A stretch of DNA of 64,000 bases from Escherichia coli (GTDB taxonomy: Bacteria > Pseudomonadota > Gammaproteobacteria > Enterobacterales > Enterobacteriaceae): NCBI RefSeq assembly GCF_030013205.1, contig NZ_CP122648.1. One strand, given 5' to 3'. Every line of letters starts with the position of its first letter. The stretch's first letter is position 1. Position numbers and translations under genes: made by a program. The notes beneath the pieces are model-generated. The model did no database searches and had not been told where the DNA came from. It saw only the letters and a program-made list of their open reading frames with translations. This document shows, in pieces, positions 48,907-50,346 of this stretch.

Positions 48907-50346
48907 TTACTGCAACCAGGTCGCGGCGATTACGCTGGAAATCAGCGACATCACAATCAGTACAATCAACACCAGGCGCATTGATCCTGGCAGCGGTGCG
49001 GCATCGGCGACGGCCTCGCTCGGTTTGCCAGGCACGACGCGACCAAACCAGCGAATAAACCAGGCGAAACTGGCGACCGATTCAATCATCAGCAGAATCA
49101 TGGCGGGCAGCAGGATCCAGTACTCCACTGACAACGCAAAACCGGCGGCAAACAGCGGGAATTTACTGAAGAAGCCGTTGAACGGCGGTACGCCGGTAAT
49201 CGCCAGCGCTGCCACGCAGAAACCCACGCCTGGCAACGGCAGGGTGTGCAATACGCCACGCAGACGCGGCAACAAGCGCGTGCCGCAGCTGTAACTCAGC
49301 GCACCTGCTACAAGGAAAAATAGGCTTTTAGCGAACGCGTGGTTGACGATGTAGGCGATGCTGCCCTCCAGCGCCAGCCGCGAGCCGAAGATGGTGAGCG
49401 ACAAGCCGAAGAACATCCAGCCAAGTTGAGTGATGGTCGACCAGGCCAACAACCGCTTCATATCCTGCTGTGGCAAATACATCAGGAAGCCGTAAAGAAT
49501 GGTGACCAGTGCCATGACCATGCCAACGCCGCCAATCACATGCGGGATATTGCCGCCGTCGATAATGGCGCGGGCAAAAATGTAAACGCCCACTTTCACC
49601 ATCGATGCGGCGTGGAGATAGGCGCTGATCGGTGTTGGCGCTTCCATTGCTTCCGGTAGCCACGCTTGCATCGGTAGCTGGGCCGATTTCCCCCACGCGG
49701 CAAACAGGATGCCACCATAAACCAGATAGCGTGCGTCGCCGTGTAACTCGCTCATCGCGCTGAGCGCAAACGTTCCGGTCTGCAAAAACAGCGTGGCGGC
49801 GGCAAGATACAACCCCAACGAACCGATATGAGTGATAAGCAACGCTTTTAGTGCTGAACGCTGCGCTTTATCGCTCTGGTAATAACTGATCAACGCCCAG
49901 GATCAGCCGCCCGTAATTTCAAAAAACAACAACTGACCGAGCAGCGTCGAGGAGAGTACCAGTCCCGCCATCGCGCCGATAAAAACCAGCAAAAATGCGT
50001 AATAACGATTCGTGCCGTTATGCGGGTGTTCGCGATTTTTATCCGTCAGATAACCCGTGGAGTAGATCGTGACCAGCAAACCGAGGAACACCACCACAAA
50101 CAGAATCAGCGTACTCACGCGATCAATGACCAGGCCAAACAACGCCACATCCCCCACGTTGACCAACGTCAACGTGACGGCAACTTTATCGGCCTGATAA
50201 AACGCGGAGATCAGTGACAACATGCACAGCGTGGTCAGCGCGGCGAACAAAACCCCCCATTCGGCGGCCCGACGTTGTGGCGAAAACGAAACGACCAGTG
50301 CGCCGATAAAAGGCAGCATTAACGTCGTCAGAGCAAGATTTTCCAT
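48907..50346 (-). pseudogene. hyfD: Hydrogenase-4 antiporter-like membrane subunit D interrupted by an in-frame TGA
   Basis: Two same-frame ORFs (49903-50346 and 48907-49893) separated only by TGA at 49903-49905: ...FFEITGG-stop-SWALISYYQSD...; homologous NuoL has Cys at this position. Confidence 0.75.

Follow-up and report, generated by a model that had tools for sequence, protein, structure and literature searches.

Among the closest described parallels to the locus analysed here is the engineered hyfDEF deletion of Pectobacterium atrosepticum, in which H2 production by FHL-2 remained intact or was slightly higher, and from which the authors concluded that HyfD, HyfE and HyfF are not essential for the assembly or activity of FHL-2 (Finney et al. 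2019, PMC7384014). The same paper describes E. coli Hyd-4 as poorly expressed natively and as lacking an accessory gene (PMC7384014). HyfD itself, the antiporter-like membrane subunit of hydrogenase 4/FHL-2, belongs to the fold family that also holds NuoL, ND5 and NdhF as well as MrpA (PF00361, PF00662), and, at 479 aa against 613, does not have the long lateral helix that extends the NuoL-type subunits at the C-terminus. A further point of reference is provided by fdhF, fdnG and fdoG of E. coli, each of which carries an in-frame UGA in an otherwise intact gene of formate/hydrogen metabolism, where relatives have Cys.

The hyfD gene described here lies in a 64,000-nucleotide stretch of an Escherichia coli genome (contig NZ_CP122648.1), hereafter the window. 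Compared with HyfD of K-12 (b2484), it is the same gene, in the same operon position and of the same length, with DNA that is 98.3% identical over the 1,190 nt compared, but codon 148 is TGA in place of TGC, so that 147 of the 479 residues are made. As in the Pectobacterium mutant, a locus that otherwise encodes all of FHL-2 has lost HyfD. The mutant, however, was made by deleting three genes cleanly and in frame, and Pectobacterium expresses FHL-2 well; in the present case a nonsense codon of natural origin eliminates a single subunit, HyfE and HyfF are still encoded, and the host is a species with poor hyf expression. With a probability that we put at roughly 93%, this is a plain loss-of-function nonsense mutation, an ordinary lineage-specific pseudogene created by a single C to A change in a pig-associated clone.

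The in-frame stop of hyfD and its place in the protein

The gene occupies positions 48907..50346 on the minus strand (479 codons plus stop) and was identified by translation, the NF005097 model, Pfam and the PGAP annotation. It lies between hyfC and hyfE, in a gene order that equals the annotated order of ETEC4079, K_EC180 and K-12. An earlier note on this DNA had reported an in-frame TGA in hyfD, and the minus-strand translation of 48907-50346 does contain a single internal stop, preceded by LLFFEITGG and followed by SWALISYYQSD. The surrounding codons read GGC GGC TGA TCC TGG GCG, and the TGA is codon 148 (49903..49905, minus strand); the range 49894-49905 named in that note comprises the TGA and the three codons after it. 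The same-frame pair of open reading frames split by this TGA, which had also been described, is likewise present in the ORF list, at 49903..50346 (147 aa) and at 48907..49893 (328 aa, counted from a TTG). The N-terminal piece is still translatable (49906..50346, minus strand, 147 codons); it runs from TM1 to part of TM5 and ends five residues past Glu143. The C-terminal remainder (48907..49893, minus strand, 328 codons) could be made only by restart at the in-frame TTG, lacks Glu143 and begins within TM5.

When the stop is repaired to Cys, the product scores 806.7 bits against the NCBIfam equivalog model for hydrogenase 4 subunit D (NF005097, curated cutoff 430 bits), with residues 1-479 aligned to profile positions 1-480. 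This end-to-end match identifies one gene broken by one stop, rather than two chance open reading frames. The 328-aa C-terminal piece alone reaches 571.8 bits on the HyfD model, and the 147-aa product as encoded reaches 207.2 bits, under the cutoff. The locus is thus hyfD, yet what it encodes is no HyfD protein.

The base change could be read directly from intact alleles. Two of the next-best alleles, those of CFSAN018748 and WP8-S18-ESBL-07 (both WP_001544798.1), differ from the window gene solely at nt 444, where C has become A (G to T at plus-strand position 49903), turning codon 148 from TGC (Cys) into TGA. Since these intact alleles differ at nt 444 only, and since MG1655 (K-12) hyfD also carries TGC at codon 148, the ancestral codon is TGC. 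Alignment with the reference gene and with the nearest intact alleles thus settles the earlier proposal of a change from TGC or TGT in favour of the former. With a premature stop relative to intact orthologues, a known point change and essential parts lost, the gene has the properties of a nonsense pseudogene, and PGAP agrees.

The same change made an inverted repeat perfect: CTGATC-N9-GATCAG (gene nt 441-461; 49886..49906, minus strand), which had been CTGCTC-N9-GATCAG before the mutation and which now includes a new Dam GATC site. A perfect inverted repeat of at least 6 bp would arise in the same way from 3.6% of all possible single-nucleotide variants of hyfD and from 3.5% of the nonsense variants, and a templated quasi-palindrome event as the source of the C to A change is suggestive at best. 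G:C to T:A is also the usual transversion caused by oxidative damage.

The stop falls early in the domain that defines the family. According to Pfam, the Cys-repaired protein contains Proton_antipo_N at residues 70-103 and Proton_antipo_M (PF00361) at residues 133-413 (E = 7.8e-54); a stop at codon 148 leaves 15 of the approximately 280 residues of the latter, a loss of about 95% of the domain. By using HMMER alignments to solved structures, we found that Glu143 corresponds to Glu144 of E. coli NuoL, the glutamate of TM5. This residue and K220, the lysine of TM7, are invariant among HyfB, HyfD and HyfF, so that the Cys-repaired protein combines the PF00361 match with the TM5 Glu and TM7 Lys of an antiporter-like subunit.

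The earlier note had also stated that antiporter-like homologues carry Cys at the interrupted position, and had pointed to the equivalent motif of NuoL. For NuoL this is correct, since HyfD Cys148 aligns with NuoL Cys149 (...WEGVGLCSYLLIG...), and it also holds for a cyanobacterial NdhF, whose Cys falls in the same column (HMMER). It does not extend to the family as a whole: two MrpA proteins have Ala or Ser in this column, and HyfB and HyfF, the paralogues encoded in the same operon, have Ser. Because paralogues can have Ser or Ala at this position, Cys148 would not be redox-active, and the alignments mark position 148 as a small-residue position in TM5 rather than as a family-wide conserved or redox Cys.

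Distribution of the TGA allele and its genomic surroundings

By megablast against 5,426 complete E. coli genomes, hyfD was found in 4,292, and in 17 of them the gene is 100% identical to that of the window. A 61-nt probe centred on the TGA gave the same number: of 4,046 genomes with a match at the site, exactly 17 match it perfectly. Every one of the 17 has a pig or wild-boar origin, and they include K_EC180 from South Korea and ETEC4079 from Belgium (according to their records) as well as the French strains W13-16 and P15-25. The two French strains are O139:H1 ST1 edema-disease strains that were sequenced by both PacBio and Illumina (PMC8798679). Over 25 kb the identity of the same 17 genomes to the window is approximately 100%, followed by CFSAN018748 with 99.9% over 97% of the query; the 17 therefore constitute one clone. 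CFSAN018748, a sister strain from a pig in Denmark, has both hyfD and pdeF intact, and its coverage stops at 97% because it lacks the IS200C insertion, the transposase gene of which lies between bamC and purC in the window (approximately 57504-57962). Compared over the whole window, ETEC4079 is 99.995% identical; apart from the focB deletion described below, the only differences over the 64 kb are a single-nucleotide variant at 7247 (G versus A, in the prophage) and an extra A in an A-run at 15103.

One could suppose that the organism truly carries TGC and that the TGA arose as an error of sequencing or assembly. A difference of one base is a plausible type of error, and the window also contains a homopolymer-length difference, in the C-run of focB as described below, which may well be an error itself. 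The change in hyfD is, however, a substitution outside any homopolymer, and the identical allele occurs in 17 complete genomes that come from separate projects in different countries, two of the strains having been sequenced on both platforms. It follows one clone exactly, and 65 contigs of the wider public collection encode precisely the 147-aa product. With this many independent genomes and contigs an error is ruled out for practical purposes, and we regard it as hardly conceivable. In the TGA clone, PGAP annotates hyfD as pseudo with the remark 'internal stop'. The TGA allele is real and inherited and marks one clone; annotation already recognises the pseudogene. Our search of the literature on hyf pseudogenes in E. 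coli found nothing relevant, and hyf goes unmentioned in the paper that describes the O139:H1 genomes (PMC8798679).

The protein cluster that contains the 147-aa fragment has 701 members. Those listed are truncated N-terminal fragments of HyfD, of 142, 149, 151, 170, 247, 249 and 269 aa, from E. coli and Shigella; some of these other fragments are recorded on 20-48 contigs, some are misnamed 'hydantoin racemase', and some could be artefacts of contig ends. Truncation of hyfD appears to be recurrent in E. coli and Shigella, which agrees with a loss at little phenotypic cost.

The hyfABCDEFGHIJR-focB operon spans 40327..53956 on the minus strand. The statement in the earlier note that the remaining hyf genes look intact is borne out for hyfA-C, hyfE-J and hyfR, all of which are uninterrupted, but not for focB, the last cistron (40327-41174, minus strand). 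Compared with ETEC4079 and CFSAN018748, focB has one base missing from a C6 run (plus strand: G6) at about position 40489, and beyond about codon 228 its reading frame is shifted. This allele, taken over 71 nt, is present in nine scattered complete genomes; ETEC1701 alone among them is a member of the TGA clone, and because of this scatter the deletion is probably either a homopolymer assembly error or the product of recurrent slippage. Across the whole hyf-focB operon, the window and the sister strain CFSAN018748 differ by 7 synonymous changes, 6 missense changes, 1 nonsense change and 1 indel, all of them unpolarised. We considered relaxed selection on the operon and set it aside, the 7 synonymous and 6 missense changes being unpolarised and too few for any statement. 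Beyond the stop, hyfD is identical to the intact allele and shows no further decay, and the clone is too young to inform on selection.

Within the window, hyfD is one among several decayed genes of the TGA clone. pdeF (yfgF, c-di-GMP phosphodiesterase; 26174-28416, plus strand) is a pseudogene with a frameshift near its 5' end and an internal stop. An IS1 element sits inside a glycine-zipper 2TM gene adjoining yfgI (approximately 24422-25119) and has left two partial fragments of that gene. Also adjoining yfgI, positions 1 to about 23250 hold a degraded prophage with lambdoid replication genes, T7-gp14-like core and SLT-domain proteins, a lysis cassette and several capsid genes that are truncated.

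Possible recoding, readthrough and restart at the stop

A TGA that falls exactly where relatives carry Cys has the classic signature of a Sec/Cys pair, as known from formate dehydrogenases, and it could thus be asked whether the codon is decoded as selenocysteine, which would yield a full-length HyfD with Sec148. E. coli has the selenocysteine machinery and uses it for FdhF, the partner of the FHL enzyme, and we confirmed the fdhF UGA in the MG1655 sequence. The transcript would also form a short hairpin from the CTGATC-N9-GATCAG repeat, which takes in the hyfD UGA; the UGA lies inside its stem, and the hairpin is unlike a SECIS element. As positive controls we used fdhF, fdnG and fdoG of MG1655, folding the 25-nt segment that covers nt 12-36 after the UGA. 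In all three the in-frame TGA is followed, at nt 15-31, by the known SelB-binding stem-loop with a bulged U and a GU-containing loop, and the segments fold at -5.7, -6.0 and -6.0 kcal/mol (fdhF, fdnG and fdoG, respectively), compared with -0.1 kcal/mol for hyfD. The hyfD segment that corresponds to the controls contains no SECIS-like hairpin and thus lacks the stem-loop that follows directly upon the UGA in the three genuine selenocysteine genes of E. coli. An Rfam search over 49600-50200 returned zero matches even at E<=10, and a 90-nt fold around the stop was no better than shuffled sequences (z = -1.38), the short UGA-containing hairpin being its sole local feature. The earlier remark that no SECIS-like hairpin is obvious is upheld by all three of these analyses.

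The phylogenetic evidence points in the same direction. A selenocysteine codon would be expected to be conserved across lineages at a redox Cys/Sec site. To our knowledge, the UGA of fdhF, fdnG and fdoG is universal in E. coli; that of hyfD, unlike theirs, is confined to a single clone amounting to 17 of more than 4,000 hyfD-bearing genomes. Being one base away from the Cys allele, the TGA allele could not have a co-evolved SECIS, and paralogues can have Ser or Ala in the column in question. PGAP, which annotates selenocysteine in fdhF, calls hyfD a pseudogene. The empty Rfam search, the z-score of -1.38 and the failed comparison with the three control genes all speak against selenocysteine at codon 148; as far as sequence allows, we reject it, and would grant it only a negligible chance. 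We would give equally little credence to the broader notion that the UGA is recoded in vivo, either as Sec without a canonical SECIS or by efficient Trp readthrough, to give a full-length but altered HyfD. If this were true, a selenoprotein or readthrough protein would have newly arisen in E. coli, in the edema-disease clone.

A milder possibility is that hyfD remains partly functional, either through a leaky UGA that inserts Trp148, or through restart at the TTG, giving a 328-aa piece that pairs with the 147-aa fragment as a split subunit. Of the stop codons, UGA is the leakiest in E. coli, and low-level readthrough of it by tRNA-Trp is a general property of the organism. The base that follows the hyfD stop is U, however, and UGA-U was reported by Poole et al. 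(1995) as the context in which UGA terminates most efficiently in E. coli; minimal readthrough is therefore expected, at most about a percent. As for restart, the first base of the in-frame TTG lies 12 nt beyond that of the TGA, and the TTG is accompanied by an SD-like duplex of -5.8 kcal/mol, and the piece that it would start retains a substantial match to the HyfD model, as given above. A C-terminal fragment may thus be made from this TTG with its weak SD-like sequence. Against its usefulness, TTG with a weak and poorly spaced SD is a poor start, and the restart product would begin in the middle of the membrane without Glu143. The break itself splits TM5, leaving the essential Glu143 on one side and the remainder of the helix on the other, so that a split subunit would require the broken helix to be rebuilt from both pieces. 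We consider residual function of this kind very unlikely, if somewhat less so than selenocysteine insertion.

Translation downstream of the stop does not depend on hyfD, since hyfE has its own SD sequence, an AAGGAG ribosome-binding site placed seven nucleotides before its ATG. A consensus scan found no promoter-like sites at the hyfD stop, terminator-like sites near the stop were in no excess over shuffled sequences, and downstream of it there is no clear C-rich, G-poor tract of the rut type.

Probable consequences for hydrogenase 4 and for the clone

Returning to the nonsense mutation as the favoured explanation, the course of events would be as follows. A C to A transversion at codon 148 of hyfD would have occurred in the ancestor of one pig clone, comprising the O139:H1 ST1 edema-disease strains and related ETEC. 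Ribosomes would now stop at this codon, and the 147-residue fragment that they release would break off within TM5; lacking about 95% of Proton_antipo_M, including K220, it would leave the cell with no functional HyfD. The rest of the operon remains readable, and the downstream subunits should be translatable by way of the AAGGAG of hyfE unless Rho-dependent polarity lowers the transcript. By analogy with Pectobacterium, the remaining enzyme would be at most an FHL-1-like core without the extra ion-translocation module that HyfD contributes. Since hyf is poorly expressed in E. coli anyway, the loss of hyfD would probably be near neutral, and the most likely outcome is that the HyfD module has been lost at little phenotypic cost.

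As a negative example, the case indicates that a TGA at a Cys position speaks for selenocysteine only where it is conserved and accompanied by a SECIS. [quoted passage not shown] Taken with the nearby pdeF pseudogene and the IS insertions, the hyfD mutation fits ordinary gene decay in a host-restricted pathogen. What this clone has lost is the HyfD subunit of Hyd-4/FHL-2, an enzyme of unclear role in E. coli and poorly expressed there, and the loss would matter little.
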